A stretch of 64,000 nucleotides of DNA from positions 1 through 64,000 of the IMG/VR virus record IMGVR_UViG_3300028025_002046; one strand, 5' to 3'. Every line of letters starts with the position of its first letter. The stretch's first letter is position 1. Below are positions 38,110 through 54,558 of the stretch, piece by piece. The stretch comes from a virus. The position numbers were made by a program, and so were the translations under genes. The notes below the pieces were generated by a model that saw only the letters and a program-made list of their open reading frames with translations, was not told the DNA's origin and did not search any database.

Positions 38110-38130
38110 TGTGGATAAGTCTGTGGATAA
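38110..38130 (-). promoter_or_regulatory. two DnaA boxes
   Basis: TGTGGATAA at 38110 and 38122. Confidence 0.7.
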
Positions 38131-38733: not shown

Positions 38734-38738
38734 ATAAT

Positions 38739-39489: not shown

Positions 39490-39582
39490 GATACTTTTGC
39501 TTCAATCAAGACAGGCTTTGCCTGTTGTATACCGTTCGATTTTATGTTATACTATAGTTCTACATATTTAGGAGAGAAATAT

Positions 39583-39759: not shown

Positions 39760-39854
39760 TGCTTAAAAAGATTGGTTGGCTTATTTTGTTATCTTTATGC
39801 TTATTTAGCTTTCAAGCACTGTTCTTTGCTGTCATTTCTACGTTATTTCTGTAA
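39759..39854 (+). CDS. 31-aa membrane peptide
   Basis: TAATG coupling; MLKKIGWLILLSLCLFSFQALFFAVISTLFL. Confidence 0.5.
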   Translation: MLKKIGWLILLSLCLFSFQALFFAVISTLFL

Positions 39855-40109
39855 TACCTGGCAAAATAGCAAATCTGAAAAAATTTTTATTTTCCATATT
39901 GGAGAAAATCTGAATATTTTGAATAAGTGTATGATACATACCCTAGGGTAGTGCTACCAGGGTTTCGTAGTGAGCACACATCCCCCTACTACCAGCTAAA
40001 TACAGAGCTTCGATCTGTTATCAATTCGTTACACAAATAAGCGTGTTTGTGCTTGCTAAATGTCTGCCTACTACCCTATAATTAATACATAAAGAGAAAA
40101 GGAAAACAA

Positions 40110-40283
40110 ATGACTAAGGTTCTATCGGTTCTATCACTAATCGCTCACGCAGTAGCATTTCTAGTTGCTGTCTATGTAATGGTTCTAGACAAAGAAGGTA
40201 ACTATGGTTATCTACTTGTTTTGGCAACCTTCGTTACCCTGCCAGTAACCATAATTCTAGTAGCAAACAAACTAAGCAAGTAA
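40110..40283 (+). CDS. 57-aa two-TM membrane protein
   Basis: SD AAAGGAAA; hydrophobic. Confidence 0.7.
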   Translation: MTKVLSVLSLIAHAVAFLVAVYVMVLDKEGNYGYLLVLATFVTLPVTIILVANKLSK

Positions 40284-40293
40284 AGGAAAACAA

Positions 40294-40419
40294 ATGAGCA
40301 ATTTCAAACTATACCTATACACCGTTGATGGCGATGCCGTTACCTCAATGATTCACGTTGATGATGTTGAAGAATTCTTGCTTGAACATCCTGATGCCGT
40401 GCTAACTAACCGTAGATAG
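40294..40419 (+). CDS. 41-aa protein, paralog of 41494-41631
   Basis: YTVDGDAV..EFL.EHP.AV.TN. Confidence 0.75.
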   Translation: MSNFKLYLYTVDGDAVTSMIHVDDVEEFLLEHPDAVLTNRR

Positions 40420-40449
40420 TTATCCACAGGATAGCAATAGTTATCCACA
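40420..40449 (+). promoter_or_regulatory. DnaA box pair
   Basis: TTATCCACA at 40420 and 40441. Confidence 0.75.
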
Positions 40450-40531
40450 GGCGGTACCCAAAAATAACGGTTTGGTAACGAAACGTGTTATGTGTCGTTA
40501 TAATGTCTGCCTATGTGCTTATAATTGACCT

Positions 40532-40681
40532 ATGAACGAAATCAAATGTGTAGTATGTGAAGACAAAGCAACCGAACTAGCCCTTGATGTTTGGGGAGCA
40601 GACTTAGAGATTTGCGACAAGCAAGAGTGCTATGACGAAATTGCTGATGGTGATTGGATACACACAAAGCCACTGGCATAA
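40532..40681 (+). CDS. 49-aa Cys-containing acidic protein
   Basis: leaderless 6 nt after TATAAT; CVVC..CDKQEC. Confidence 0.7.
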   Translation: MNEIKCVVCEDKATELALDVWGADLEICDKQECYDEIADGDWIHTKPLA

Positions 40682-40728
40682 TGTCTGCCCTATCAACTAA
40701 ACTAATAACATCTAACAAAGGAAACTAA

Positions 40729-40851
40729 ATGGCTAACTACTCAGTATCAAGATTCAACGAACTAATGCGTATCGCTAAGAGTGATGAGTATATGAGTGAG
40801 AGTGAGTTCAATGAACTAATGGCTATCTTCAAGATTCGTGGGTATCACTAA
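40729..40851 (+). CDS. 40-aa protein, paralog of 42806-42928
   Basis: MANYSVSRFNELMRIAKSDEYMSESEFNEL..KIRGYH. Confidence 0.8.
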   Translation: MANYSVSRFNELMRIAKSDEYMSESEFNELMAIFKIRGYH

Positions 40852-40913
40852 TGGTTGAATGGATCATCTACCTATTTGGCTTATGGCTAATAGCGGTTAT
40901 TCTTACTCAGTAA
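40851..40913 (+). CDS. 20-aa hydrophobic micropeptide
   Basis: TAATG coupling; MVEWIIYLFGLWLIAVILTQ. Confidence 0.55.
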   Translation: MVEWIIYLFGLWLIAVILTQ

Positions 40914-41050
40914 ACTAATCGGCGTGTCGTCTTGACAAATGCCCCCGAAAGGGGGTACCAAAAATAACGGTTTGATAACGACACTACGATATGACTTGCA
41001 TAATGTCTGACCCTGTGCTTATAATTGAGGTATAAAGAAAGAGGTTCCAA

Positions 41051-41332
41051 ATGACTTACTACAACTACCGCCAAAACAACTCGGGTGGCTCGTTCTCTGA
41101 CCCTGCCCTAAATGTTGTCGTCAAGGCAAATAGCCCTGCTGAGGCAGATGCGATTGCCATCACTAAGGGTATCTACTTTGACCCTGAGTTTGAGATTGAT
41201 TGCGATTGCTGTGGTAACCGCTGGTATCCTGCTACTGAATACACTGCCTCAGATACCATTCCTGCTGTATCAGATTGGGATTGCCAATGGGCTATCTCTG
41301 ATGGTGTGTTTGCTCAGATAGTTGTTGAGTAG
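41051..41332 (+). CDS. hypothetical phage protein (QNNSGG / DC.CCG.RW motifs)
   Basis: motifs recurrent in phage early genes; SD GAGG. Confidence 0.8.
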   Translation: MTYYNYRQNNSGGSFSDPALNVVVKANSPAEADAIAITKGIYFDPEFEIDCDCCGNRWYPATEYTASDTIPAVSDWDCQWAISDGVFAQIVVE

Positions 41333-41493
41333 GGGAAACCCTACTTGATACACACCTAAAAATGTGGGTACCCAAAAATAACGGTTTGATAACGAAGCTT
41401 AATAAATGTGTAAAATACGGCGTGTCGCTACCTAAAATGTCATACCCCCTTGCTATGCTTACAGGGTAAGCAAAAAAGAAAAGGAAATTGAAA

Positions 41494-41631
41494 ATGAAAA
41501 ACGAACTAAAGAAGTGGCAACTATTCGAATACACCATTGACGGAGATGCTGTCGTTTCGTCAATCTACTACCTAGACATTGCGGAATTCCTAAAGGAACA
41601 CCCTGAAGCAGTGCCAACTAACCACCGCTAA
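41494..41631 (+). CDS. 45-aa protein, paralog of 40294-40419
   Basis: YTIDGDAV..EFLKEHPEAVPTN. Confidence 0.75.
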   Translation: MKNELKKWQLFEYTIDGDAVVSSIYYLDIAEFLKEHPEAVPTNHR

Positions 41632-41649
41632 AAGAAAAGGAAATTGAAA

Positions 41650-41748
41650 TTGATAACACTAACTTTTGAAACTTGGGAAGAATTTGATAACGCTCTAAGC
41701 GGTATCACTAGCCTAGTAATCGCTACTAATCCAGACCCTACTAAATAG
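41650..41748 (+). CDS. 32-aa peptide
   Basis: TTG start after AAAAGGAAA; ITLTFETWEEFDNAL. Confidence 0.5.
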   Translation: MITLTFETWEEFDNALSGITSLVIATNPDPTK

Positions 41749-41780
41749 TTATCCACAACTACTTATCCACCTGTGGATAA
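41749..41780. promoter_or_regulatory. DnaA box cluster
   Basis: TTATCCACA 41749, TTATCCACC 41763, TGTGGATAA 41772. Confidence 0.7.
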
Positions 41781-41909
41781 CTTTGGTACCCAAAAATAAC
41801 GTTTTGGTAACAAACTTAAAAAGACCTACGATTTACGGCGTGTCGTTCCCTAAAATGTCCTACCCCTATGCTATGCTGAAAGCATAAAGAAAAAGAAATG
41901 AGAAATCAA

Positions 41910-42044
41910 ATGGCAGTAACAATCAAACTAACCCCTAGCGAATCAAACCTATTCAACTGCGAAATCTGTGGCAACCCTGCCAACAAGATGAAACTAATGA
42001 ACAGCGGTTACTGCCAATACACTTGTGCCAGATGTGCCAAGTAA
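41910..42044 (+). CDS. 44-aa zinc-ribbon protein, paralog of 43427-43555
   Basis: CEIC..CARC. Confidence 0.7.
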   Translation: MAVTIKLTPSESNLFNCEICGNPANKMKLMNSGYCQYTCARCAK

Positions 42045-42089
42045 AATGTCATAGCCTACTGATAAACTAAATATATAAACAAAAGGAAA

Positions 42090-42135
42090 TGAGCCTTAGC
42101 AAATAAACGAGTAATCGGTGAGCCTAAGCAAATAA
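42090..42135 (+). repeat. tandem TGAGCCTNAGCAAATAA element, copy 1
   Basis: near-identical 46-bp element at 43809-43854. Confidence 0.8.
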
Positions 42136-42167
42136 GTTCCACTAACAAAAAAAGAAATGAGAAATAA

Positions 42168-42431
42168 ATGAACATCAACGAAATTCGCGAACAAGGTATC
42201 GGTTCAAACTTCAAGGTTATCAACCAAGCAGACGGATACCAAAAGAATAACCGCCTATGGTTTGGTGAGTGTGTTGAGTGTGGTGAGAGAGTAACCAATT
42301 CAAACCTAAAAGGTGTTTGGGTTCACACAATAATCTTAGAGCGTGACGGCTTGTCTACTAGGTCTAGAGATGTTGATTACTGCCCTACCGCTCAAATTCA
42401 GGGTAACCTAGTTCAAGAGATTTCAATCTAG
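42168..42431 (+). CDS. hypothetical protein with CxxC
   Basis: ORF track; promoter at 42045. Confidence 0.7.
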   Translation: MNINEIREQGIGSNFKVINQADGYQKNNRLWFGECVECGERVTNSNLKGVWVHTIILERDGLSTRSRDVDYCPTAQIQGNLVQEISI

Positions 42432-42493
42432 GCAAAAACTTTTTGCGACACGCCAGGGATAACTTGACAAATCGCAAAAATTTTGGTACCCGA

Positions 42494-42509
42494 TCGAACA
42501 CTTGTTCGA
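42494..42509. promoter_or_regulatory. LexA (SOS) box, actinobacterial type
   Basis: TCGAAC-ACTT-GTTCGA, perfect match. Confidence 0.75.
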
Positions 42510-42608
42510 ATGTAACGATTAGGTTACGGAAGCTCAGAAACACCCCTAAATCTAACTAAAATGTCAGACCCCCCTGTTACAATGAATACATAAACGAAAG
42601 GCAAACTA

Positions 42609-42758
42609 ATGAAAAGAATTCACACAGTAATGGCGTTCCTACCAAACAAGAAGAAGGTTATTGACCTAACCTATGACGCAGACAATTTTACAGTAGAGCA
42701 AGCAATCAAGTCTGTGGAAGACAAGGGCTTGACAGTAATTTCGGTTTACACAAACTAA
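42609..42758 (+). CDS. 49-aa hypothetical protein
   Basis: SD GAAAGG; promoter at 42560. Confidence 0.7.
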   Translation: MKRIHTVMAFLPNKKKVIDLTYDADNFTVEQAIKSVEDKGLTVISVYTN

Positions 42759-42805
42759 AATGTCTGACCCTACTGCTAAAATGAAATCAAACGAAAGGAA
42801 GTCAA

Positions 42806-42928
42806 ATGGCTAACTACAATGTTGCGAGATACAACGAACTAATGAGAATTGCTAAGAGCAACGAATTTATGTCTGAAAGCGAATTCAACGAATTGGTTGG
42901 AATAATGAAAATTAGGGGATACCACTAA
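42806..42928 (+). CDS. 40-aa protein, paralog of 40729-40851
   Basis: MANYNVARYNELMRIAKSNEFMSESEFNEL..KIRGYH. Confidence 0.8.
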   Translation: MANYNVARYNELMRIAKSNEFMSESEFNELVGIMKIRGYH

Positions 42929-42929
42929 A

Positions 42930-42989
42930 ATGGAATTCCTATCCCTAGCCCTAATCGCTTTCGCAATCTATCTATTTATCAATCAGTAA
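42930..42989 (+). CDS. 19-aa hydrophobic micropeptide
   Basis: MEFLSLALIAFAIYLFINQ, same position as 40851 peptide. Confidence 0.55.
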   Translation: MEFLSLALIAFAIYLFINQ

Positions 42990-42999
42990 AGGAAATCAA

Positions 43000-43200
43000 A
43001 TGTCTGTAACTATCAAGCGTAATGTAATTCTATCGGTTCTAGCAACCATCTTCTTCTTCGTGGCTAAGTCTGGTCTTGATGAAATGGCTAAGTCTGGTCT
43101 TGACGGCTTGGGAATGTTCCCTTTCCTAATCGGTGGCTTTGGCTTTCTAGGCTTCTCTATCGGTCTGGTTATTCGTCTATGGGGGAATGAGAAAGAGTAG
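43000..43200 (+). CDS. two-TM membrane protein with in-frame 24-bp duplication
   Basis: TGGCTAAGTCTGGTCTTGA at 43061 and 43085. Confidence 0.7.
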   Translation: MSVTIKRNVILSVLATIFFFVAKSGLDEMAKSGLDGLGMFPFLIGGFGFLGFSIGLVIRLWGNEKE

Positions 43201-43203
43201 GAG

Positions 43204-43312
43204 TTATCCACACCCTACCCCAAGTTATCCACAGGGGGTACCCCCCGAACACTTGTTCGAATTTACGTAGCTTACGTAGCTCCCCCCCAGCTTTTTTCGA
43301 ACAAAAGATCGA
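43204..43312. promoter_or_regulatory. DnaA box pair plus two LexA-like boxes
   Basis: TTATCCACA 43204, 43225; CCGAAC-ACTT-GTTCGA 43245; TCGAAC-AAAA-GATCGA 43297. Confidence 0.7.
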
Positions 43313-43426
43313 ATGTAACGAATTGGTAACAAAATGCGACACACCCCCTAAAAGCCTATAAAAACTAACTAAAATGTCAGACCCCCCTGCTATGCTTACT
43401 ATGTAAGCAAAAGAAATGAGAAATAA

Positions 43427-43555
43427 ATGAAATACCTACTAAGCCCAGCCGAATCAGCAAAGTTTCCTTGCGACCTTTGTGGCAAGCCAGCAACTAACGC
43501 CTATGTAATGCGTTCAGGATTCGTTCGTTACAATTGTAATCGCTGTGTGTCGTAA
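43427..43555 (+). CDS. 42-aa zinc-ribbon protein, paralog of 41910-42044
   Basis: CDLC..CNRC. Confidence 0.7.
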   Translation: MKYLLSPAESAKFPCDLCGKPATNAYVMRSGFVRYNCNRCVS

Positions 43556-43616
43556 CGCTAAAATGTCTTACCCTAATGCTAAAATAAATTATCAAACAAA
43601 AAGAAAGAGCAACTAA

Positions 43617-43796
43617 ATGCCAAAGCCAAGAATGACCAAAGCCGAAAAAGCAATCGTGAAAGCGGTGAACGCAATTGTGTTCGCAAATCCAGAAATCCGT
43701 AATGGCGGAAAATTCCTAGACAGAGCCGCTTTCCAAAAGTTGCCAGACCAGACCCAGAAAATCTATCTGGATTTGGTAATCAACAAAACATTCTAA
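43617..43796 (+). CDS. 59-aa basic protein
   Basis: promoter at 43562. Confidence 0.65.
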   Translation: MPKPRMTKAEKAIVKAVNAIVFANPEIRNGGKFLDRAAFQKLPDQTQKIYLDLVINKTF

Positions 43797-43808
43797 AACC
43801 AAATGGCG

Positions 43809-43854
43809 TGAGCCTGAGCAAATAAACGAGTAATCGGTGAGCCTCAGCAAATAA
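43809..43854 (+). repeat. tandem TGAGCCTNAGCAAATAA element, copy 2
   Basis: matches 42090-42135. Confidence 0.8.
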
Positions 43855-43875
43855 AGCCCTAACGAAAGGAAAACT

Positions 43876-44037
43876 ATGACAGCCAAAGAAAAAATCGAAT
43901 TGCTTACTCGCAAGCACGAAAGAGGTTTGGTTATCTCTAACCTCTACTCTGCCATTCTCGCCTGTGATGAGGATGCCGATGAATGTGATGTTTGTCTAGG
44001 CTTGAAATACGCAATTCAGCGGATAGAGAAAATGTAG
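43876..44037 (+). CDS. 53-aa hypothetical protein
   Basis: SD GAAAGGAAA. Confidence 0.65.
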   Translation: MTAKEKIELLTRKHERGLVISNLYSAILACDEDADECDVCLGLKYAIQRIEKM

Positions 44038-44067
44038 TTATCCACAGGTAACCAAAAGTTATCCACA
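44038..44067 (+). promoter_or_regulatory. DnaA box pair
   Basis: TTATCCACA at 44038 and 44059. Confidence 0.75.
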
Positions 44068-44161
44068 GGGCGTACCCACCCCCCTAGATCATTTACGTAA
44101 CCAATTAAATACCCCCCAGATTATTTCCCATAATGTCCGACCCCCTTGTTATACTTATCGT

Positions 44162-44305
44162 ATGAACGATAAGACGACTTGCTACCACTGCCAGAAGAAC
44201 AACACCTACGCTTTGGCTACCCTAAAAAATGGCAATGTTATGCGTGTGTGTAACCTATGCTCATTTTACCTTGACGACCTAATCACCAACCTAGTAATTC
44301 TCTAA
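44162..44305 (+). CDS. 47-aa zinc-ribbon protein
   Basis: leaderless; CYHC..CNLC. Confidence 0.65.
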   Translation: MNDKTTCYHCQKNNTYALATLKNGNVMRVCNLCSFYLDDLITNLVIL

Positions 44306-44320
44306 GAAAGGAAAATCCCT

Positions 44321-44383
44321 ATGGATGACGACTATGTAGAATATGATGAGTGCTATGAAGAGCCAGGTGACTTCTTTTCATAG
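44321..44383 (+). CDS. 20-aa acidic peptide
   Basis: SD GAAAGGAAA; MDDDYVEYDECYEEPGDFFS. Confidence 0.5.
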   Translation: MDDDYVEYDECYEEPGDFFS

Positions 44384-44469
44384 CACCACCCTTCGGGGGG
44401 TACCCCCAGCTCCGCTGGGTCGTTTACGTTAAGAAGTATAATGTCTGACCCCCCTGCTATACTTGAGGT

Positions 44470-44661
44470 ATGAATTCACGAAAGGCTAACTCTATGACCA
44501 CTCCTAACCCTAACCCTAATGTCGTTGGCTATGTCTGCGTTTACTGCCAGAAACTCTACCTGCCAGAAGAAACCATCTGCCTAGATTGTAACGAGTATGA
44601 CGGAATGGTGGCTCTAACCAAGAACATCTTGGCTATGTTTGCTGACCCTGTTGTTTCATAA
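44470..44661 (+). CDS. zinc-ribbon protein
   Basis: CVYC..C..CNEYDGM. Confidence 0.7.
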   Translation: MNSRKANSMTTPNPNPNVVGYVCVYCQKLYLPEETICLDCNEYDGMVALTKNILAMFADPVVS

Positions 44662-44716
44662 TGTCTGTGGCTACTGCTAAACTTACCCTATAAACCCTAT
44701 CGAAAGGCTATCCCCT

Positions 44717-44812
44717 ATGTGCGATTGCGAAGACCGTCCTTGCTGTGGCTGCTACTCTATGGCTGACCTATACTCCAACTCTGGAGACCCCTATGACCCT
44801 AACAACTGGTAG
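44717..44812 (+). CDS. 31-aa CEDxPCCGC peptide
   Basis: SD GAAAGG; MCDCEDRPCCGC. Confidence 0.65.
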   Translation: MCDCEDRPCCGCYSMADLYSNSGDPYDPNNW

Positions 44813-44917
44813 GTAACTACCCCCCCTGGGGGGTACCCCCAGATCTAGCTCTTTTACGTTAAGAACTATAATGTCCTACCCCCAATGTATAATTGTATTA
44901 TCAACGAAAGGTAAACT

Positions 44918-45184
44918 ATGTTAGAAATCGCATTTGGAATGAAGCAGGTTCAGAAGAACTCAACCGAGAACCCTATGGTCGCTATGATGGCTCTGGAACT
45001 GGAAGACACTCGCAACAACCTAAGCGAAGATGAGTTTTTAGAGTTTCTTGCTAAGTTTGCTCTCTCTATCTCTGCTATGGCTATCTCTCAAACTGTTCAG
45101 TTGTGTCTTGATGAAACCACGCAAGATGAGTTGGAGAAAACCATTTTGGAACTAATGGAAATGGAAGATTTAGGTAAGGAGTAA
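44918..45184 (+). CDS. acidic helical hypothetical protein
   Basis: ORF track, SD, promoter 44870. Confidence 0.75.
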   Translation: MLEIAFGMKQVQKNSTENPMVAMMALELEDTRNNLSEDEFLEFLAKFALSISAMAISQTVQLCLDETTQDELEKTILELMEMEDLGKE

Positions 45185-45323
45185 TCTCCTACCCCCGAAA
45201 GGGGGTACGCCCAGCTCCGCAGGGCTGGTTTACGTAGCTAATTAAAAAGCTCCCAAACCTTTTTGCTAAAATGTCAGACCCCCTTGCTATAATTGTATTA
45301 TCAACCAAAAGAAATGAGAAATA

Positions 45324-45524
45324 ATGAACGACACTCCGCTAGTAATCCGCTCTAATGAAGTTGTAAACAACCTACGAGATGAGAAACTAAACTACGACAC
45401 CTCCTACGCAAAAGCGTTTGGTGCTTGCTGGGGAGTAATGACCGACGAGCAACGACTAATCGTTTTGGAATACTCGCAACGCCAAGCAATAATTATCAAC
45501 ACACTAGGAGAAGAAATAAACTAA
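45324..45524 (+). CDS. hypothetical protein
   Basis: ORF track, promoter 45270. Confidence 0.7.
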   Translation: MNDTPLVIRSNEVVNNLRDEKLNYDTSYAKAFGACWGVMTDEQRLIVLEYSQRQAIIINTLGEEIN

Positions 45525-45703
45525 TGATGACACGCAAAGACTATGTAGCAACCGCAGAAATTCTAAATTCTTATGTTCACAATTTAGACGCTCCAATTTT
45601 TGATTGCCTAGTTCAAGATTTTGTGGCTATGTTCGCAGAAGATAACGACCGCTTTCTAATTGATAAGTTTGAAGACGCTTGTTGGGGAACGGCTAGGGAG
45701 TAA
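45524..45703 (+). CDS. hypothetical protein (MTRKDY..F..DN.RF..KF..AC family)
   Basis: motif common in phage early genes; SD AGGAG. Confidence 0.75.
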   Translation: MMTRKDYVATAEILNSYVHNLDAPIFDCLVQDFVAMFAEDNDRFLIDKFEDACWGTARE

Positions 45704-45812
45704 TCCCTGCTCCCCTGGGGGTACGCCCCCACCCCTAGCTCGTTTACGTAACGCATTAAATTTACCCTAGATTTATTCCTAAAATGTCTTACCCCTGATG
45801 TATAATAAAACT

Positions 45813-45983
45813 ATGAAGAAAAAGAAACCACCACTAGGCAAGGTCGCCAACGCTACTCGCAAGGCTCACGCCAAGGAATTGTTCCAGAGCCTTTTACTCA
45901 ACAAGCACTTAGTCGTTACCCCTGCCAACCGCAAGGGTTCACGACAGAGCAACAACCAAAAAGCAATTAGGGAGAGTTACTAA
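45813..45983 (+). CDS. basic 56-aa protein
   Basis: leaderless; RKGSR..KAI.E motif. Confidence 0.7.
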   Translation: MKKKKPPLGKVANATRKAHAKELFQSLLLNKHLVVTPANRKGSRQSNNQKAIRESY

Positions 45984-46239
45984 TGGATGAACTATTTATT
46001 GTAATCAACGACAAGGGATACGCTGTTGAGATGTGTCTTACCGAGCAAGAAGCGTTAGAGTGGATTGCTAAATTTGGTAACAAAAACTATTCTATCGATT
46101 TGGATGTGGTGTGCTAATGAAAGTTTATGTAGTTATTGAGACTTGTTGTATGCACTTTTGTGGAGTATACAAGGACAAGGCTGAGGCTGATGCCTATGCC
46201 GAAGAGAATGACTATTCCGTCTATGAGTATGACCTTTAG
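45983..46239 (+). CDS. two small coupled ORFs (about 44 and 40 aa)
   Basis: MDELFIVINDKG.. then MKVYVVIETCC..GVY; TAATG overlaps. Confidence 0.55.
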
Positions 46240-46288
46240 TGTCATACCCTCACGCTATAATTGAAACACCCTAACGAAAGAGAAACTA

Positions 46289-46756
46289 ATGAAAGCAATT
46301 ATCGAATCTAACTGTGTTTGTGAACCAGACGAAGAAAACCCTGAAAGCCTAAATTGCTACGGTGACTGCTGGGAATGGCAGAAAGAAGACGTTCAGTGGA
46401 TTATCGGTGAATGGGCAACTAAGAATGAAGTAGCCGAAGGACAGCCAATTCTAATTACTGGCACAAACATGAACTGGAACCATGTTTCAGGCTGGGCAAC
46501 CGCAACACCAGAAACCATTCTCGATAAACTAACCTTGAACGGTGATTTTAGTTTAGAGTTTGACTTTGACCCTGATGAAAATACTTTCAATGTTGTTCGT
46601 CGTTCTCACGATGAAATGGGAGCGTTGTTTACTTTTGTAATCATGGAGCCATGCAACCAGTGTGGAGTAGGAATTCCACGAGAGATTTATAACGAAGAAC
46701 TAGGCATGTGTCTTGAATGTTCAAATGCTTACTTCAACCATGAGGATGAAGAATGA
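46289..46756 (+). CDS. acidic Cys-containing hypothetical protein
   Basis: ORF track; promoter 46238. Confidence 0.75.
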   Translation: MKAIIESNCVCEPDEENPESLNCYGDCWEWQKEDVQWIIGEWATKNEVAEGQPILITGTNMNWNHVSGWATATPETILDKLTLNGDFSLEFDFDPDENTFNVVRRSHDEMGALFTFVIMEPCNQCGVGIPREIYNEELGMCLECSNAYFNHEDEE

Positions 46757-46812
46757 TAGAGTTTGGAGTTATCCTAATAGCGATAGGTTTGGTTATCCTA
46801 CTGAATCAGTAG
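46753..46812 (+). CDS. 19-aa hydrophobic micropeptide
   Basis: ATGA overlap; MIEFGVILIAIGLVILLNQ. Confidence 0.5.
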   Translation: MIEFGVILIAIGLVILLNQ

Positions 46813-46912
46813 ATACCCCCCGAAAGGGGGTACGCCCTATCGATCAGCTGCTTTACGTAGCCATAATGTCAGACCCTAAATGTATAATGGTATTATCAAA
46901 GAAAAGGAAACT

Positions 46913-47632
46913 ATGTCACTCATTCGCTCTAAAGACCGTAAAGTTGCTAACCAAGTAAACAAGGCTGGCAGTCAGGCTTCAATGGCTAACACTTTTGGAT
47001 TACCTAGTGGCAAGGCTTTTTCCTGCCCTGGGGCTACCTCGGTTTGTGAGACTATTTGTTACGCTGGCAAACTTGAAAAGGTATTCAAGGGTGTTCGCAA
47101 TGTTTTGGTATCTAACTATGAGCAACTACTGGCAACCGATACTCTAGGCATGATTGCTTTGATTGACGAAATGATTCAAGACTTCAAGCAGGAATGTGAA
47201 AAGCGTAATGCCGATAAGTTATTCCGTATTCACTGGGACGGAGACTTCTTTAGCGAGGACTACACTAGAGCATGGAATTTTGTTATCCGCCTAAACCCTG
47301 ATGTTCAATTCTGGGCTTACACTCGTTCAGACTTTGCTGTTCCAATTCTAATTGACATTCCTAACCTAGCCCTATACTTCTCTGCTGATTCTGCTAACAA
47401 GACTTTGGCATGGGAACTAAAGCGTAAGTATGGTGTGAAACTTGCTTACCTCGCCAAAGACTTTGCTACAGGCAAGAGTGACTTCAATGAGCAACAGGAA
47501 AAGTCTGCTGTTCCCTGCCCTGAAAACAACAAGAAGATTCCAATGATTAGCGAAAAGGGCAGTGCTTGCGTGATGTGTTCGCAGTGTGTGTTTGCTCGCA
47601 ATGACATTCTGTTTAGTGCTACTAAAAAGTAG
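46913..47632 (+). CDS. GP88-family protein (radical-SAM-like, phage gene 88)
   Basis: FGLP..SCPGAT..C..ICYA, FRIHWDGDFF, FWAYTR, C-terminal CP..C..C..C. Confidence 0.8.
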   Translation: MSLIRSKDRKVANQVNKAGSQASMANTFGLPSGKAFSCPGATSVCETICYAGKLEKVFKGVRNVLVSNYEQLLATDTLGMIALIDEMIQDFKQECEKRNADKLFRIHWDGDFFSEDYTRAWNFVIRLNPDVQFWAYTRSDFAVPILIDIPNLALYFSADSANKTLAWELKRKYGVKLAYLAKDFATGKSDFNEQQEKSAVPCPENNKKIPMISEKGSACVMCSQCVFARNDILFSATKK

Positions 47633-47774
47633 TGCTAGGCAGGGTACCCCCCACCCCATAGCTGCTTTACGTTACGATGCTAAAATGTCCTACCCCCCCT
47701 GTATAATATATACATAAGCAGGAAACGCAGCCCCCAAACAGAAAAAAATAATTGAACAAGTTTGAAAAATGTGC

Positions 47775-47803
47775 TTGACAATCTCCTGCTTATGCCTTAT
47801 AAT
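47775..47803 (+). promoter_or_regulatory. consensus sigmaA promoter
   Basis: TTGACA-17-TATAAT. Confidence 0.8.
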
Positions 47804-47852
47804 AGATACATAAGCAAAAATGTTTATGTAAACCGAATAGAAAGAAGCAAAA

Positions 47853-47999
47853 ATGACCGAAGTTACTGTTGGCTCACAGTTCGCAACCCAGAAGTCTGGC
47901 GTTGTTGGTATTGTTCAGGAAGTTGTAATCAACAAGAACGGCTCTCAGCGTGTTCGCCTTGATGTAAACGGAACTGACCGCTGGACTACTGTAAAGTAA
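47853..47999 (+). CDS. 48-aa beta (SH3-like) protein
   Basis: MTEVTVGSQFATQKSGVVGIVQEV..RWTTVK. Confidence 0.75.
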   Translation: MTEVTVGSQFATQKSGVVGIVQEVVINKNGSQRVRLDVNGTDRWTTVK

Positions 48000-48005
48000 T
48001 TCACC

Positions 48006-48033
48006 AATCCTGAGTATGATTTCAAACTGCTCA
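48006..48033 (+). ncRNA. H-type pseudoknot element
   Basis: AATC-CTGAGTAT-GATT..AAAC-TGCTC; homologs at 48606, 48687, 50855. Confidence 0.6.
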
Positions 48034-48162
48034 CAACATTGTAAATAGGTTCGTTATCCATAATTGTGGCTCGTAGAGATAACCAATAAGCACCCACTCC
48101 CTATCTATAATGTCTTACCCCCACGCTATAATAGAGTTACAACCCAAACAAAGGAAGATAAA

Positions 48163-48600
48163 ATGGCAAGAGCCGTATCAGTAAAAATCCCAACTATCAA
48201 AGTCATTGAGATGATTGAGAACAAGTTGGCAGAGATGAACAAGGTAGTCAAGGAATACCCTGCCCTACTAGCAACCTACAACAAGGCTAACAAGGAATAC
48301 ACCAAAGCCCTTGCTGAGTTGGTTGGCAAGAACTCTAACAAGATTGTTGCTTATCGTGATTTCGATTGGACTAGCGACCAGATTGCTCTGTCTAGCGACT
48401 ATCGTGGCTCTGCCCAGATTTATGTTGGCAAGGGTCTAACAAGCAAGATTGGCGACAAGCCAGAAAAGCCAGAAGACCCAGACAACTACACTTTCAAGCA
48501 GAACTTAGAGCAGTTGGAAAAGACCTTGAAGTTGCTTCGTATGACCGAACAGGAAAGCGTTTCTGCCTCAACCTACAACTCTGTCTTAGACCTAATCTAA
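48163..48600 (+). CDS. coiled-coil hypothetical protein
   Basis: SD AAGGAAG; promoter 48109. Confidence 0.8.
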   Translation: MARAVSVKIPTIKVIEMIENKLAEMNKVVKEYPALLATYNKANKEYTKALAELVGKNSNKIVAYRDFDWTSDQIALSSDYRGSAQIYVGKGLTSKIGDKPEKPEDPDNYTFKQNLEQLEKTLKLLRMTEQESVSASTYNSVLDLI

Positions 48601-48605
48601 GATAA

Positions 48606-48762
48606 GCACCTAAGCAAGTGTCTAAAAGGCTTAGTAAACACCTTACTCTCTGTTGCTCGCAAGGGTATTCATAATAAGGTTTTTATACACCTAAGCAAGT
48701 GTCTAAACTGCTTACAATCCCCCTGTGAAGTATCTGGATAGATACTGGTTAGCAGGGGGATT
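48606..48762 (+). ncRNA. structured intergenic RNA: two pseudoknots plus terminal hairpin
   Basis: CACCTAAGCAAGTGTCTAAA..GCTTA twice; AATCCCCCTG/CAGGGGGATT stem. Confidence 0.5.
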
Positions 48763-48869
48763 CTTGCTACCCCAGGAGCTGGGGGTACCCCCCCTACCCA
48801 CTAAGCCCTTTACGTTATAATGTCTTACCCCCCTGTTATAATTGACCTATCACAAAGAAAAGGAAAACT

Positions 48870-49508
48870 ATGAAACACGAAACAACCCTTTACACCTACA
48901 CCAACAAAGCCTATGTTACTGAGTATGGCGATTTCGCAGCCGAAGGCTCTTGCCTTACTTTTGATTCTTCACTACTCTCTAACTCACAATGGCAGTTAGT
49001 AGATGAGTTGCCAGATTCACAAAAGTTTGAGTATGTCTTGGCTATCCTTGACGGAGAAGAAGATGTTATTCGTGAGATTGAAAGCGAGAATAAATAATGT
49101 TTGATGATGTAATCGCTATGGACATAGTGGAACAACTAACCGAAGAACAACTAGACCAACTAATCGCAATACTAGAAGGAGCAGGTTACTAATGTTTATT
49201 CCAAACTTAGCAATACTACTAGACGAAATCAAACAGGCAGAGAAATCTTCCAAACTTGAAGGTGTTGTGTCTTACGCTAGTGGCTATGAAGATGGCTTGC
49301 GTATGGCATTAGACATTTTGGAAGGAAGGGTAGAGTAATGGAAAAGATTACTGTTAGTCTTAGGTTTGAATACTACCCTGAAGAAGACCACGCAGAATTG
49401 TTTGAAGACATGACTGAAGATGAAATGATTCGCTATGCTAAAGAAATGGCTTGTGAAGATATAGTCAGTGGAGATGTTTGGGAATGGCTAGAAGTTTCGG
49501 TAGAGTAA
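48870..49508 (+). CDS. operon of four small acidic ORFs
   Basis: 48870-49097 in ORF track, then MFDDVIAM.., MFIPNLAI.., MEKITVSL.., closely coupled. Confidence 0.65.
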
Positions 49509-49558
49509 AATGTCAGACCCTACCAGTATAATTAGACTATCAACGAAAGGAAACACTA

Positions 49559-50050
49559 ATGGGAACTCGTAATCTAACTAAGGTAATTGACAAAGACGGA
49601 GTAACTAAGGTTGCTCAATACGGACAATGGGACGGCTACCCTAGCGGACAGGGTATCAACGCTCTTCTACACGCCTACAATCACAGGCAGATTGAAAGCA
49701 AGTTGCCTAGACTACACTTTCTAACCGACAGCGAGATTGAGAACATCAACTCACTACTATCGGCAAGCGGACAGCCAATTAGCGAAGTCTATCCTACCCT
49801 ATCTCGTGATACCTGTGCGGACATTCTAGGCTATGTCGCTTGGTCTAATGATGTATTCCTAGTGGATAGTAGCGACTTTGAGAATGACGAATTGTTTTGT
49901 GAAGCAGTTTACACGCTAGACTTTCAAAAGAAAAAGTTTATCTCTACTTATGGTGGACACACCTTAGAGTTTGAGTTGGACGACCTACCAGAACCGAAAG
50001 AGTTTTTGGCAGATTGGGCGTATGAACTAAATCCTGGTGTGGTGGGCTAA
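49559..50050 (+). CDS. hypothetical phage protein (MGTR..QWDGYP family)
   Basis: N-terminal MGTR and Y.QWDGYP.G.G motif. Confidence 0.8.
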   Translation: MGTRNLTKVIDKDGVTKVAQYGQWDGYPSGQGINALLHAYNHRQIESKLPRLHFLTDSEIENINSLLSASGQPISEVYPTLSRDTCADILGYVAWSNDVFLVDSSDFENDELFCEAVYTLDFQKKKFISTYGGHTLEFELDDLPEPKEFLADWAYELNPGVVG

Positions 50051-50147
50051 CGCTCACCCCTAGGGGGTACCGCCCAAGATCCAAGCTGTTTACGACTATA
50101 ATGTCAGACCCCCAATGTATAATGGAACTATCAACGAAAGGGAAACA

Positions 50148-50309
50148 ATGAGCGAGTATGTAGCAGTAGACATTTATGACCGTATGGAGGCTAACGCCAA
50201 CGACCTTGGTGGTAGCGTTGAGGAAGACCTAGCAGAGATTCTTGCGTCTGGTGACCTAAGTGCTTTTGAAGACTACTTTGGCGACACAGACCCATTTGAA
50301 TTCCTATAA
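50148..50309 (+). CDS. small acidic protein
   Basis: SD GAAAGGG; promoter 50100. Confidence 0.7.
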   Translation: MSEYVAVDIYDRMEANANDLGGSVEEDLAEILASGDLSAFEDYFGDTDPFEFL

Positions 50310-50355
50310 TGTCCTACCCCACCTGTATAATAGAAACATCAACGAAAGGTAAAGA

Positions 50356-50835
50356 ATGAACGAGAATGAAAACACAGATAACATTGGCAATTTTGGTGAG
50401 TATAATGCTGTTCCTGTTGAACCAATAGTCCACCCTTCCCTAGCAAAATTGTATGACGAGATTGCTGACCTAAAAGAAAAGTTGGTTCACTCAACTACCA
50501 TTGCGAGCGAAGCACAAACTCGTTTGCGTGAACAGCAGAGCGAGTATCGTGAGAACGAGGGCAAACTTCAAGACATTCTAATTGAAGCACTTGGAGATGA
50601 AGAAATTGACAAAGATGTAGCAGACAAGATTGCCGAACTCTATGGTCTTGACCTACGCAAGGTATTCTCTATCAACATTCAGGTTGTTGTAAATGTTGAA
50701 GTGTCTGCTCCTGTTGGAACTGACCCTAGCGACATTGTAGATAATGTTGGCTTTGGCTATGGCGGTATCACCTACTCTGGTATTGGTGATTTGGAAAGCG
50801 ACCATTGGGAAATTGACGACTGGGAAGAAGTGTAG
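50356..50835 (+). CDS. acidic coiled-coil hypothetical protein
   Basis: ORF track; promoter 50308. Confidence 0.8.
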   Translation: MNENENTDNIGNFGEYNAVPVEPIVHPSLAKLYDEIADLKEKLVHSTTIASEAQTRLREQQSEYRENEGKLQDILIEALGDEEIDKDVADKIAELYGLDLRKVFSINIQVVVNVEVSAPVGTDPSDIVDNVGFGYGGITYSGIGDLESDHWEIDDWEEV

Positions 50836-50974
50836 GGTAAACCTTTCCCCTACCAGTGCTGGGTATCACTATAAACTACCCCCACATGGGCGTACCCCTC
50901 CCTGCCCCAAGATCCATTTACGATAGCTTTAAGAAATCTCCAGAAAATTCCCCAAAACTTTTTGCTAAATAGTA

Positions 50975-51003
50975 TTGACAAACAGAGTGTTTGCCTGTAT
51001 AAT
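50975..51003 (+). promoter_or_regulatory. consensus sigmaA promoter
   Basis: TTGACA-17-TATAAT. Confidence 0.8.
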
Positions 51004-51045
51004 TAGACTATACACAAATCAACCACTAACAGAAAGAGAACCCCT

Positions 51046-52062
51046 ATGGCTCACGAACTAGAACAAGGCGAGAATGGCGAAGTTGCTTTTGCTTCGCTAC
51101 GCCAACCTGCTTGGCACAATCTAGGCACTGTCTTTGAAGAGCAGGTCAATACAGCAGAGATGCTGAAACTTGCTCACCTTGATAATTGGAATGTTCGTCT
51201 TGAAGATGTAACCATTCCAGAAAACTTTGAGAGCGACAAAAACTATTCGTTCGTTACTCGCACTAACCCTTTTGATAACACCAAGAATGATGTTCTCGGC
51301 GTTGTCGGTGAGCGTTATGTTCCCCTACAAAACGAAGACCTATTTTCGTTTGGCGACAACCTGCTAGACGGCGGTGGTCGTTGGGAAACCGCTGGCTCAA
51401 TCAAGGGTGGTCGTCAGGTGTTCGGCTCTATCGCTTTGGCTGATAGCATTACCCTAGACCCTAATGGTCGTGCTGATAAGATTGATAACTATCTTCTAAT
51501 CAACACTTCTCACGACGGAAGCATTGCTATTCAGGCAAGTATCACGCCTGTTCGTGTTGTATGTGCTAACACTCTCAACCTTGCTCTATCTTCATTCAAG
51601 GGCAAGAAAGCAGCGAAGCAGACTTTCAAAATCCGCCACACTTCAACTGCCGAAGGTAAAATCGCAGTTGCTCGTGAAGCACTAGGTCTTGCCAAGACTT
51701 ACCTAGACGAGTTTTCTCTTATGGCTAACGCTATGATTGAAAAGGAAATCACTAAGGCTGACTTTGATAAGATTGTCGCTCTTGCTTACCCTGCTCCTGA
51801 AAAAGACGCTAAGGGTTCATTCAAGAAATACGACAGCAAGATTGACCTGCTAAACGACATTTATGTTGGGCAATTCAATGACACCATTTCTGGAACTGCT
51901 TGGGGAGCATACAACGCTCTAACCGAACGCCTAGACTGGTATCGCTCTGCTCGTGGTGGAAGCAACGAGAGTATCTACGCTTCTGCTTCTGGCTTTGACC
52001 CTGTAATCAACGCAGAGAAGAACCGCTTGATGAAGATTGTTCAACAGGTTGTAATGGCGTAA
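51046..52062 (+). CDS. DUF932 / TIGR03299-family phage-plasmid protein
   Basis: PAWH.LG, Y.PLQN, ETAGS..GGR, SHDGS, TPVRVVCANTL, IRHT, GTAWGAYNA.TE. Confidence 0.9.
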   Translation: MAHELEQGENGEVAFASLRQPAWHNLGTVFEEQVNTAEMLKLAHLDNWNVRLEDVTIPENFESDKNYSFVTRTNPFDNTKNDVLGVVGERYVPLQNEDLFSFGDNLLDGGGRWETAGSIKGGRQVFGSIALADSITLDPNGRADKIDNYLLINTSHDGSIAIQASITPVRVVCANTLNLALSSFKGKKAAKQTFKIRHTSTAEGKIAVAREALGLAKTYLDEFSLMANAMIEKEITKADFDKIVALAYPAPEKDAKGSFKKYDSKIDLLNDIYVGQFNDTISGTAWGAYNALTERLDWYRSARGGSNESIYASASGFDPVINAEKNRLMKIVQQVVMA

Positions 52063-52209
52063 GCCATTCTCCCTTGCTCCTGGCAGTAAAATGTCAGGGG
52101 TATAGGGGGTACCCAGCTATCGATCTTATTTACGACACACCTTACGATATCCCTATAATGTCATACCCTACCCTTATAATAGATACATAACCCGAAGAAA
52201 GGAAAAGCA

Positions 52210-52395
52210 ATGCCTAAATACCAAATAGAAATGATGATTGAATTCTCTGGTGAGATTGAAGCAGACAACGAAGAACACGCAGAACAACTTGCTTGGACGA
52301 GTTGGGGAGATACAATGGATAGCCCTATCGTTTATGACGGTGTTTATTCAATTGAAGTAGAAGCAGTAGACGAAGAAGAAGACGAGGAAGACTAA
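52210..52395 (+). CDS. small acidic protein (EA.N.E.A family)
   Basis: ORF track; promoter 52157. Confidence 0.75.
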   Translation: MPKYQIEMMIEFSGEIEADNEEHAEQLAWTSWGDTMDSPIVYDGVYSIEVEAVDEEEDEED

Positions 52396-52640
52396 TGGGA
52401 GCAAGAATAAATCCAGACGACATTCAGTTTCGTAAAGACGCTGACTACTATATGGACCCTATCGGTCTAGCAGTCATCCTTATTGAAGAGATGATTGACT
52501 GGGGTATTGAACGAGACCGAATGATTGTTGAGAAACTACCAGAAGAACACATTTGGTATTTTGATGGTCTACTCCGTCGAACAGAAACTATCCTAGACAG
52601 ACTAGGTGTAGAGAACATTCCAGTAGTAGGTGATTGCTAA
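52395..52640 (+). CDS. hypothetical protein
   Basis: TAATG coupling. Confidence 0.7.
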   Translation: MGARINPDDIQFRKDADYYMDPIGLAVILIEEMIDWGIERDRMIVEKLPEEHIWYFDGLLRRTETILDRLGVENIPVVGDC

Positions 52641-52739
52641 TGAGTGATTGTATTGAGAATGATAACGGACGTTGTATGTTCTGTGGTGCTATAATGTCTG
52701 ACCCTACCGCTATAATTGAAGCCTAACCAAAGGAGAACA

Positions 52740-52913
52740 ATGTCTAAAACCTATCAAGTAGAATACAATGCTGTCTATTGGGTAACTGCCAATAGCGAAG
52801 AAGAAGCAATTGAGTTGGCTATTGAAGAACACGAACAAATGCCTAATGGCGATTGGGAAGCAATGATAGACCCTTATGACAGCGACAACTTCAACACACT
52901 AGGAGAGAAATGA
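52740..52913 (+). CDS. small acidic protein (EA.N.E.A family)
   Basis: SD AAGGAG; promoter 52693. Confidence 0.75.
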   Translation: MSKTYQVEYNAVYWVTANSEEEAIELAIEEHEQMPNGDWEAMIDPYDSDNFNTLGEK

Positions 52914-53833
52914 CACAACTAGAAAGCCTACTAGAAGAAAAGGCAGAACTGCTTCAAGACTTTGAAGATGTAAAGAATATGCTAAGTGATTCAGGACACG
53001 ACCTATTCCTAAACAGGATAGATATGCTTGACAGTATGATTGAGATTGAGTTGAACAATGCCTAATTACATTATTGTTGCTACTAGAAAACAAGAGTTTG
53101 AGATTGATGCTGTTGATTTTCCAGATGAACAGGCTGCCCTTGCTTCTTTGGATAATTGGATTGCTGATGACTTTGAAGCATTTGCTATTCAGGCAACTTG
53201 GGATTTTGAGGTGTTAGCAAATGACTAGACCTGCTTGTGCTTGGTGTGGTATGGATGAAATGGATGAGTATGCCTCATTCAACGGTAAAGATATTTGTAT
53301 AGATTGTGCAGGAGAATAATGAGTTATAGCACTTGTAGAGAATGTCTTGAAGACTACCTAGATGAAGACCTAAATGATTTTATGGTTTGTTATGTATGTG
53401 ACCACGAATGTGACGAAACCTGTAATAATCCCTGTAATGTAAAGGAAGCAAATGAGTAAAAAGATAAACATCAAATTTGAATTGAACTATGATTTGGAAG
53501 ACCTACGCTTTATGGTGGGGGAAGACTTTCCAGAAGAACAATTTCGTGAACGAGTAATTGAATATGCTTTCCACGACCTACACGAAATGTTGCGTAGCGA
53601 TAGCGTAGATGCTTGGGCAGATGTGGAAGAAATCAATGAGTAACGCTATGGGAGAAATCACAGTAGGCGAAGCGTATGAAGAAGGTTTCTATGATGCTAG
53701 GGCAAGTGTATTAGAACTAATAGATGAGTGGTATACGGAGTATAAATCAAGTTTAGACTTGCTACCCTTGCCAGTTGCGATTGGCTTTTTGAAACAGGCT
53801 ATCTTAGATGCCGATGTTTTAGATATGGAGTAA
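52910..53833 (+). CDS. run of about six very small acidic or Cys-rich ORFs
   Basis: overlapping stop/start codons with SD sites; includes 53452-53643 and the ORF ending at 53833. Confidence 0.55.
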
Positions 53834-54007
53834 CATCCACCCGAAAGGGTGGGTACCCCCAGTTAACATAATATAGTTAAACTAAATAATTAATTACGAA
53901 AGCGGATTAAGATCCCCGAAATCTTTTCCCAGAAATTTAGCTTTTGCTATTGACAAATGAGGCGTTATGCCTTATACTTGTAATACAACCCAAAAGAAAG
54001 AGAACAA

Positions 54008-54519
54008 TGCATACCCTACAATACATTGCAATTCAATCAGAAGATAAAGAGAGTGCAGCCAACACAGTAAAGAACCTACTAGAAGAAGAACTAAATCCTG
54101 GTTCGTCTTGGTATGACTGGTTCGTTGTAGGTGGAGGTCGCTTTGCTCCTAATCCAGAAGACCAGTATGATGACACCCATGAGACTGTTATCTCCTATGC
54201 AGATACCCCTGACATTTTTGATGAGAAAGTTGGAGACTGTATGAAATCCAAAGGTCGTGAGTATCAGGAACTCTATACAGATTACAAACTAAATAAAGAA
54301 GAAATAGAGAAGACCTTTGAGGCTTGGAATGGCAACATGGAATTCTCTATGGCTCTCTATCCACTACGGAAGATGTTGGACATTGTTCAAGGACATTGGG
54401 ATTACACATCTCGTGTATACGACATTACCAATTGGTCTACCAATACCCACCACATGAACAGAAGTCTAGCAGACGGAAACAAAAATTGGTTCCTTGTGCC
54501 TGTTGACTTTCACTTCTAA
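54008..54519 (+). CDS. hypothetical phage protein (WYDW..VGGR..VDFH family)
   Basis: motifs; TTGACA-17-TATACT at 53950; start approximate (MHTLQY). Confidence 0.75.
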
Positions 54520-54558
54520 ACCTGCTATACTTATACTCCCACAAACAAAGGAAACGAA

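Follow-up and report, generated by a model that had tools for sequence, protein, structure and literature searches.

Transcription units purged of short palindromes in a small-gene array of a probable freshwater actinobacterial phage

The small-gene block and its missing palindromes

The subject of this study is a block of small genes in the viral record IMGVR_UViG_3300028025_002046 (IMG/VR), a single contig of 94,588 bp of which the first 64 kb (positions 1–64,000) are the window analyzed here. The last 126 nt of the record repeat positions 6–131, as is characteristic of a circular-type assembly; its completeness is 88% according to CheckV and its GC content is 42%. The order of its structural and replication genes matches that of Jay2Jay, a Streptomyces phage of cluster BE (Stanwilliamsviridae), with protein identities of 25–55%, and near-identical DNA was found solely in freshwater, aquatic and subsurface metagenomes. 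In our best explanation the record is probably a siphophage of freshwater actinobacteria with a genome of ~94 kb and a distant relationship to the Streptomyces BE-cluster phages. Between 40.0 and 56.4 kb the genes are very small and all of them lie on the + strand. In the transcription units between 40,013 and 56,459 a total of 13 of the 16 palindromic tetramers, i.e. all except AATT, CTAG and TATA (the purged set), are depleted about tenfold. The main features are:

40013–56459, palindrome-purged block with sharp edges (0–11 words of the purged set per 500-bp bin inside versus 13–32 outside)
39991–54006, + strand, small-gene array of ~45 open reading frames (ORFs) with 28 promoters of PafBC/RecA-NDp geometry and 26 terminator-to-promoter gaps
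54007–56196, + strand, distal sub-block with 7 ORFs that are preceded by canonical TTGACA-N17-TATAAT-type promoters
41051–41332, + strand, DUF7296 gene (Pfam), a member of the array
46913–47632, + strand, GP88-family gene (47% to Jay2Jay gene 10)
51046–52062, + strand, DUF932 gene, without 13 palindromic words (54% identity to Jay2Jay gene 5)

An earlier note on this DNA, made from the letters alone, had placed a purged stretch at 39990–54000. The purge itself stands, but its end had to be moved: the block is longer and sharper, with the last cluster of normal word usage upstream at 39994–40012 and the first one downstream at 56460. For counting, the array was divided into 10.0 kb of coding sequence, 2.6 kb of gaps (26 segments) and 1.39 kb of promoters with their leaders, each of the latter taken from 12 nt before the tGTC element up to the start codon. 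Words of the purged set occur at 3.1 per kb in coding sequence, 4.3 per kb in promoters and leaders and 33.8 per kb in gaps, compared to 29.0 per kb in the remaining genome. Since the density in promoters and leaders is also low, whole transcription units are purged and not the ORFs alone. In a curated set of 52 ORFs (12.0 kb coding, 4.2 kb non-coding) AGCT, GATC, GTAC and TTAA are completely absent from coding sequence, while the non-coding part carries 19, 11, 18 and 13 copies, respectively; 61 of 62 copies of these four words fall in gaps, which make up 19% of the array (P ~1e-43).

Correction for base composition does not remove the depletion. With a Markov model of order 2, all 16 palindromic tetramers together amount to 33–61 copies per 2 kb in the block versus ~105 expected, and to 80–105 versus ~115 elsewhere. 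Between 40000 and 54000 the ten lowest-scoring of all 256 tetramers are palindromes (z −5.4 to −9.9) and 13 of the 16 palindromes rank among the lowest 26; AATT, CTAG and TATA show no depletion. Markov-corrected counts, which the earlier note had proposed as a check, thus uphold the depletion in the array (z −5 to −10), although the general purge of 4-bp palindromes that it had claimed for the ORFs applies to 13 words and not to AATT, CTAG and TATA. We also shuffled synonymous codons within the array ORFs, keeping proteins and codon usage constant: 172 palindromes were observed versus 557 ± 17 expected, and 126 of these 172 are AATT or CTAG. For single words the observed and expected numbers were 0/54 for AGCT, 0/48 for TTAA, 0/39 for GATC, 2/38 for ACGT and 0/24 for GTAC, and for 12 words no shuffle reached the observed value. 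As a control, 42 long ORFs elsewhere yielded an observed/expected ratio (O/E) of 0.73. The structural region is mildly depleted itself and is devoid of CCGG, GGCC, GCGC and CGCG.

The DUF932 gene illustrates the extent of the purge. It had been described as lacking GATC, AGCT, GTAC, ACGT, TTAA, CATG, TGCA and TCGA; on recounting all eight were 0, and the only palindromic tetramers in the gene are AATT (two copies) and CTAG (seven copies). The two words that had been reported as rare exceptions were also found, ACGT at 40355 and GATC at 40862. Two genes (46289–46756 and 46913–47632) jointly carry 9 of the 10 CATG copies of the array ORFs. In the distal sub-block the ban is narrower: AGCT, GATC, GTAC and TTAA are still absent, whereas ACGT, CATG and TGCA occur at expectation.

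The selectivity extends beyond tetramers. In the array ORFs the interrupted palindromes CCNGG (O/E 0.20), GGNCC (0.12), GCNGC (0.34) and TCNGA (0.27) are depleted while controls remain at ~1. GANTC is depleted as well, which gives a range of 0.12–0.51 over five interrupted words. AGNCT, CANTG, CTNAG, TGNCA and TTNAA show no depletion. CTAG is tolerated, yet only 3 of its 68 copies extend to ACTAGT, TCTAGA, CCTAGG or GCTAGC, compared to 20% elsewhere. Some words are avoided throughout the 94.6 kb: CCGG, GGCC and GCGC do not occur at all and CGCG occurs once (at 42186), whereas non-palindromic GC-only tetramers reach 70–200 copies each. The hexamers CTCGAG, GACGTC, GCATGC, GCTAGC, GTCGAC and TCATGA have no copy in the record, and GAGCTC, CGTACG and CGATCG are nearly absent from it. 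Although they are non-palindromic, CCCG and CGGG are also 4–5-fold low genome-wide (18 and 10 observed versus 71 and 56 expected), and CCTC/GAGG and GCAC are low in the array; these words may be targets of Type IIS or Type III enzymes.

Searches for relatives and functions of the array returned little. A megablast comparison of the array with 50,697 phage records yielded zero matches, and among 20 array proteins Pfam recognized DUF7296, GP88 and DUF932 only, plus a sub-threshold match to a DnaJ zinc finger. No recognizable anti-restriction, nuclease or methyltransferase domain was found in these 20 proteins, and methyltransferases of the C5, N6/N4 and D12 families are not encoded anywhere in the record.

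Inter-unit gaps, promoters and natural variation

The words that are missing from the transcription units survive between them. The earlier note had described the boundaries as concentrating palindromes. This is correct relative to the ORFs but not in absolute terms, as the gap density is close to the genome background. An overall enrichment of the gaps was therefore rejected: 33.8 compares with 29 per kb, and the Markov O/E in gaps is ~1 for GTAC, AGCT, GATC, ACGT and TCGA, while TTAA, ATAT and TGCA are low even there. GTAC alone is ~6-fold denser in gaps than in the remaining genome. The word cluster reported at 44833–44862 was recovered in full (GTAC at 44833, GATC at 44842, AGCT at 44847, ACGT at 44856 and TTAA at 44859) and belongs to a junction with a layout that we use as a model for the others:

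44813–44917, + strand, model junction: GC hairpin, 12-bp GTAC-centered palindrome at its 3′ foot, GATC/AGCT box, TTTACGT and TTAA, promoter, ribosome-binding site
45185–45323, + strand, junction: hairpin, GTAC foot, three AGCT, one ACGT, one TTAA, then promoter
46757–46912, + strand, junction: hairpin, GTAC foot, compound TCGA/GATC/AGCT run, TTTACGT, then promoter
52063–52209, + strand, junction 3′ of the DUF932 gene: GGTACC, AGCT, TCGA/GATC, TTTACGA, then promoter
53834–54006, + strand, last long array gap: hairpin, GGTACC, AT-rich stretch with four TTAA, GATC and AGCT, canonical promoter at 53950

Of 15 GGTACC sites in the genome 13 sit in gaps at the 3′ foot of the GC hairpin, usually inside a palindrome of up to 12 bp that consists of a G-run, GTAC and a C-run. 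The foot palindrome of this phage is GGGGGTACCCCC (10–12 bp). Between the GTAC foot and the conserved motif TTTACG(A/T) lies a variable segment of 15–36 nt. AGCT or GATC, in contexts that vary, is present in 10 of 13 such segments; shuffling predicts 1.1 and reached a maximum of 6 in 5000 shuffles. The gaps also hold inverted repeats of the type GTAAC-N6-GTTAC. We considered TTTACG as a −35 element and rejected it, as its distance to a −10-like hexamer varies between 8 and 32 nt. RNA folding of 12 junctions returned GC hairpins without U-tracts, with energies mostly near those of shuffled controls (z +1.3 to −2.6).

Four junctions additionally carry perfect DnaA boxes (TTATCCACA), in each case directly upstream of the GTAC foot:

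40420/40441, DnaA-box pair
41749, DnaA box with an inverted partner at 41772
43204/43225, DnaA-box pair
44038/44059, DnaA-box pair

In three of them the boxes are spaced by 21 nt, and the fourth is a convergent set (41749–41780). The genome has 12 perfect DnaA boxes in total, none of them outside 38.1–57.1 kb. Among them are two identical inverted pairs, 12 nt apart, which frame the block at 38110–38130 (~1.9 kb before it) and 57058–57078 (~0.6 kb after it). The flanks (38000–40000 and 56460–58000) are AT-rich with 34–37% GC and carry 28–30 ATAT and 24–28 TATA per 2 kb, the maximum in the genome; they could be origin-like or repeat-boundary regions.

Promoters controlled by PafBC (RecA-NDp) have the form tGTCgg-N10-tAnnnT and lack a −35 element (PMC8635444); PafBC is activated by single-stranded DNA (ssDNA), such as that exposed when DNA ends are resected (PMC11804915). 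The array has 28 promoters with the geometry tGTC-N12-TAnnnT (40061–52716), which makes them putatively PafBC-type. The ‘gg’ of the consensus is replaced by AG, TG, CT, TT or AT in this phage. The form TGTCGGTG-N8-TATAAT, which equals the mycobacterial consensus, is found exactly in three relatives (L012, L013 and L019). Six canonical TTGAC-N17-TAnnnT promoters are present in the window:

47775, canonical promoter
50975, canonical promoter
53950, canonical promoter
54503, canonical promoter
55945, canonical promoter
56177, canonical promoter

A scan of IMG/VR with the DUF932 protein yielded 25 loci with 76–95% protein identity. The low-palindrome block is present in all relatives that cover the array (about 15), some of which are more extreme with 0–5 words per kb over 10 kb. 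The 1-kb DUF932 gene was compared across 24 orthologues (76–95% identical). None of them contains AGCT, GATC, TTAA or any of the GC-only words, whereas other words toggle between lineages: TGCA is either 0 or 16–18, ACGT 0 or 5–6, AATT 0 or 3–7 and GTAC 0 or 3. CATG toggles as well, and the switches extend over whole arrays and are not limited to the DUF932 gene. The three lineages that permit TGCA (L023, L025 and L031) carry it at 16–18 copies per kb, far above random expectation, which suggests a codon choice driven toward the few permitted words.

The gaps follow the same lineage-specific pattern. In L012, L013 and L019 the foot palindrome is centered on GCGC, with ORF/gap counts of 0/16, 1/12 and 0/14, respectively; in L013 and L019 GCGC reaches 4.5–5 per kb in gaps, right after the terminator hairpin, compared to 0–0.1 per kb in ORFs and in the 4–5-kb late-gene flank. 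GATC counts in other relatives are 0/17, 1/19, 0/13 and 1/15. Each lineage keeps its own palindromic foot motif in each long gap, and the core word of this motif is banned elsewhere.

Natural strains differ from each other by whole cassettes. In metagenome contigs the repeated promoters are frequent sites of such joints (40507 to 41435, 50111 to 50288), and the repeated boundaries therefore also serve as recombination substrates. Another joint (53317 to 53451) deletes a single ORF (53319–53459) in three runs, and the ORF at 49338–49508 is swapped for 145 other letters in one run. The last 120 nt of the L012 contig carry tandem ATTTGGGG-type repeats near the counterpart of window position ~56.9 kb; these repeats may be a further cis-element or the sign of a physical end.

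A probable terminal repeat, restriction avoidance as the likely cause, and rival explanations

For the observed depletion, with its word specificity, its conservation among relatives and the position of its surviving sites, avoidance of restriction is a well-supported cause: the purge is specific for palindromes, it extends to interrupted sites, and single words toggle across 24 orthologues of one protein. Restriction enzymes would be the selective agent, and their avoidance is the only known process with such a signature (PMC6286503). Composition, codon usage and ORF calling, in contrast, are excluded by the Markov, codon-shuffle and orthologue tests. It is true that the array has an excess of A on its coding strand and a codon usage of its own and that the purged parts coincide with the transcribed parts, as would be expected if composition, codon usage, strand skew, mRNA constraints or ORF calling had produced the pattern as a by-product. 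However, shuffled codons still predict 557 palindromes where 172 are found, order-2 Markov scores reach −5 to −10, palindromes alone are affected, and a word can switch from 0 to 16–18 per kb between orthologues. In addition, whichever start codons are chosen, AGCT, GATC and GTAC stay confined to 26 short segments. An origin without selection at the DNA level is therefore very improbable.

The earlier note had further proposed that the array is first-entering or terminal-repeat DNA. Jay2Jay has a direct terminal repeat of 11,438 bp, inside which homologues of both the DUF932 gene (gene 5) and the GP88 gene (gene 10) are located, at 1.6–5.3 kb and 123.7–127.4 kb, i.e. at both ends of that record; repeats of ~11 kb are typical of BE1 phages (PMC5764925). 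In our circular-type contig the block lies exactly between the counterparts of both ends of the unique region of Jay2Jay, and the array genes point to the would-be genome end, as in T5 and Jay2Jay. Contig depths over the block rise in two runs (19 to 28–37 to 14; 28 to 110–149 to 91) but not in a third, and mixtures of strains confound these values. Five long relatives (70–107 kb) each contain a single DUF932 copy and no assembled double repeat. The ends of 17 related IMG/VR contigs scatter over 55.9–57.5 kb and within the array and define no terminus. A comparison of the sequences flanking the block for repeats returned just a 21-bp DnaA-box pair in common. Jay2Jay homologues, synteny and the T5 precedent thus favor the proposal, while neither termini nor a clean twofold depth were found. 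On this sequence evidence the block is probably a long direct terminal repeat that collapsed in assembly, and both this status and an early entry are best read as indirectly supported. Overall, the interpretation given in the note finds support in part.

Taken together, we propose with a probability of roughly 0.58 that the block is an array of pre-early (host-takeover) genes, most likely within a collapsed long direct terminal repeat, that restriction avoidance has purged it and that cis-elements have preserved its gaps. The block would be transcribed by the host RNA polymerase before any counter-defence of the phage exists, which would explain why its transcription units are purged of Type II words. 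Removal would have proceeded mostly via synonymous codon choice and would have affected 13 of the 16 tetramers, hexamers with a CTAG core, and CCNGG, GGNCC, GCNGC and TCNGA. Forbidden words that differ among sister lineages would be the footprint of an arms race with differing repertoires of host enzymes. The gaps would have escaped because they carry sequence-constrained, lineage-specific palindromic cis-elements, namely the palindrome at the hairpin foot and the AGCT/GATC box just upstream of TTTACG(A/T). On the most parsimonious reading, which has slightly less than even odds within this explanation, dimeric proteins that co-evolve with each lineage would bind in the gaps; the surviving palindromes would form the core of their sites and be kept by function despite their cost. 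A concentration of avoidance in one block fits the results on first-injected DNA: in T5-like phages Type I and Type II systems act only on sites in first-step-transfer (FST) DNA (PMC10644984), and in Autographiviridae the first-injected leading region decides restriction sensitivity (PMC12455610).

Several observations weigh against this proposal. The depth steps near 40.3 and 56.75 kb in Logan contigs are uneven, from ~1.2x to 5x between runs (14 to 18–19 in one run). Eighteen GTAC, 20 AGCT and 11 GATC sites in the gaps still expose the molecule to restriction, and a new EcoRI site in the FST DNA of T5 renders that phage sensitive (PMC10644984). GTAC and AGCT have the lowest z of all words in the remaining genome, so that the words kept in gaps are those most avoided elsewhere, a position that GCGC takes in relatives; the retention of the most-avoided words is tolerated by a cis-element role but not predicted by it. 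Finally, neither the Jay2Jay repeat nor the FST DNA of T5 shows a general purge, which argues against a family trait.

The gap sites could in principle also be of use to the phage as designed points of breakage or nicking, by a host Type II enzyme or one of its own, that trigger the early programme. The earlier note had suggested that the clustered sites are shielded by a bound protein, act as decoys or methylation sensors, or confine cuts to intergenic DNA with a damage signal for PafBC; compared with these ideas, a place in lineage-specific palindromic cis-elements is the more probable one and accounts for the layout equally well. Host cuts would then be confined to the gaps of an expendable first-entering repeat copy and leave promoter-ORF-terminator units intact; resected ends would provide ssDNA for the PafBC-type promoters, and the second repeat copy would restore the genome by recombination. 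If this were true, the restriction attack of the host itself would switch on the early programme of the phage. All surviving gap sites are indeed located 3′ of a terminator hairpin and 5′ of the next promoter, the promoter geometry occurs 28 times here and exactly as tGTCgg-N10-TAnnnT in relatives (PMC8635444), PafBC responds to ssDNA (PMC11804915), and the words kept in gaps are the most avoided ones elsewhere. We nevertheless consider such a role improbable: new EcoRI sites sensitize T5 when placed in FST DNA (PMC10644984), the gap density is at background with a Markov O/E of ~1, and expression that depends on cutting would fail in hosts without the enzyme. It also relies on a terminal repeat and an order of entry that are themselves putative.

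A nickase or endonuclease encoded by the phage, which recognizes the gap palindromes and is confined to them by avoidance of the words elsewhere, would account for the one lineage-specific word that each gap keeps and the remaining genome nearly lacks (GCGC in relatives, GGTACC here with 13 of 15 copies in gaps); its nicks, localized single-strand interruptions like those in T5-like phages, could also seed ssDNA for PafBC. T5 combines long repeats with nicks at R/GCGCRGG (PMC3517423), and the annotation of T5 places one major nick at 9748, within the injection-stop region of the repeat. However, known phage nick sites are asymmetric and affect a single strand whereas the gap motifs are symmetric, no such enzyme was found in the array (DUF7296, GP88 and DUF932 being the only Pfam families), and the purge of ten other words would be left unexplained. 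We rate this idea as slightly less probable still, together with the one that the purge shields first-entering DNA from pre-early nucleases by which the phage degrades host DNA. In favor of such self-avoidance, T5 degrades host DNA when only its FST DNA is inside, with the sparing of its own DNA unexplained (PMC10644984), and GC-only palindromic tetramers are absent or nearly absent from the whole genome of the present phage. Against it, 13 words, the interrupted sites and the toggling between close lineages would demand many nuclease specificities, the gap sites would still be cut, and Pfam detected no nuclease domain in the array proteins tested.

Comparison with known systems

A purge of this breadth would have several uses. 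So far, regional avoidance of single motifs was known in the first-injected DNA of T5-like and T7-like phages. What is new here is the removal of nearly the whole vocabulary of short palindromes from ~11 kb of transcription units, with a ban list that differs between natural sister lineages. In uncultured phages it could mark pre-early or first-exposed DNA from sequence alone; the forbidden words could be a readout of the restriction specificities that hosts deploy, and the arrays are a natural experiment on the limits of recoding coding DNA under many simultaneous bans. One or two banned words are kept per gap beside PafBC-type promoters and DnaA boxes, which leads to a testable hypothesis linking restriction, DNA-damage sensing and early expression.

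The host-takeover module of Bacillus phage SPO1 is located in a 13-kb terminal redundancy and comprises two dozen small genes, all or almost all of which have their own terminator and strong early promoter. SPO1 differs from the present phage in promoter type and host phylum, and we know of no report of palindrome purging in this module.

The FST DNA of T5-like phages (Tequintavirus; T5, BF23) resembles the block in its small pre-early genes, its ~10-kb repeat and its transcription toward the genome end. As restriction-modification acts only on sites in FST DNA, selection against sites is confined to this region (PMC10644984); T5 has six EcoRI sites, all of them outside the repeat. The depletion of restriction sites that the earlier note had given for T5 is thus true for particular sites such as EcoRI but does not amount to a general purge: the O/E of 4-mer palindromes is 0.84 versus 0.95, and 6-mer palindromes occur at 14.2 versus 13.7 per kb. 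A purge as a general trait of T5 FST DNA was rejected on these values. No contrast between ORFs and gaps is reported for T5, and its promoters are of the sigma-70 type instead of the PafBC type.

Jay2Jay (KM652554) and the BE cluster share with the present phage the homologous DUF932 and GP88 genes, a small same-strand array with spacers of 90–140 bp and the synteny of the genome (PMC5764925). Word-specific avoidance is seen in Jay2Jay as well, though genome-wide, with no GATC in 133.5 kb. Its repeat differs in that it has ~55% GC (versus ~48% in the rest) and is not depleted of palindromes, and a purge as a family trait of BE-type terminal repeats was rejected on these grounds. The present phage differs in its 42% GC, in its freshwater and subsurface metagenomes and in a repeat that is only inferred.

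In prokaryotic viruses palindromic Type II sites have been found below Markov expectation across the genome (Rusinov et al. 2018, PMC6286503). The avoidance described here is of the same kind but is regional, concerns nearly all palindromic tetramers together, spares the gaps and toggles word by word between lineages. In the leading regions of Autographiviridae and conjugative plasmids, the DNA that enters first sets restriction sensitivity and carries variable anti-defence genes (PMC12455610; PMC11541004). The avoidance in Autographiviridae concerns a single Type I motif as opposed to the broad, ~tenfold depletion here, and leading regions of plasmids are reported not to be consistently depleted in palindromes of 4–8 bp (PMC13478746). 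Compared with these systems the block is an extreme, lineage-variable form of the known avoidance of sites in first-injected DNA and not a new kind of system.

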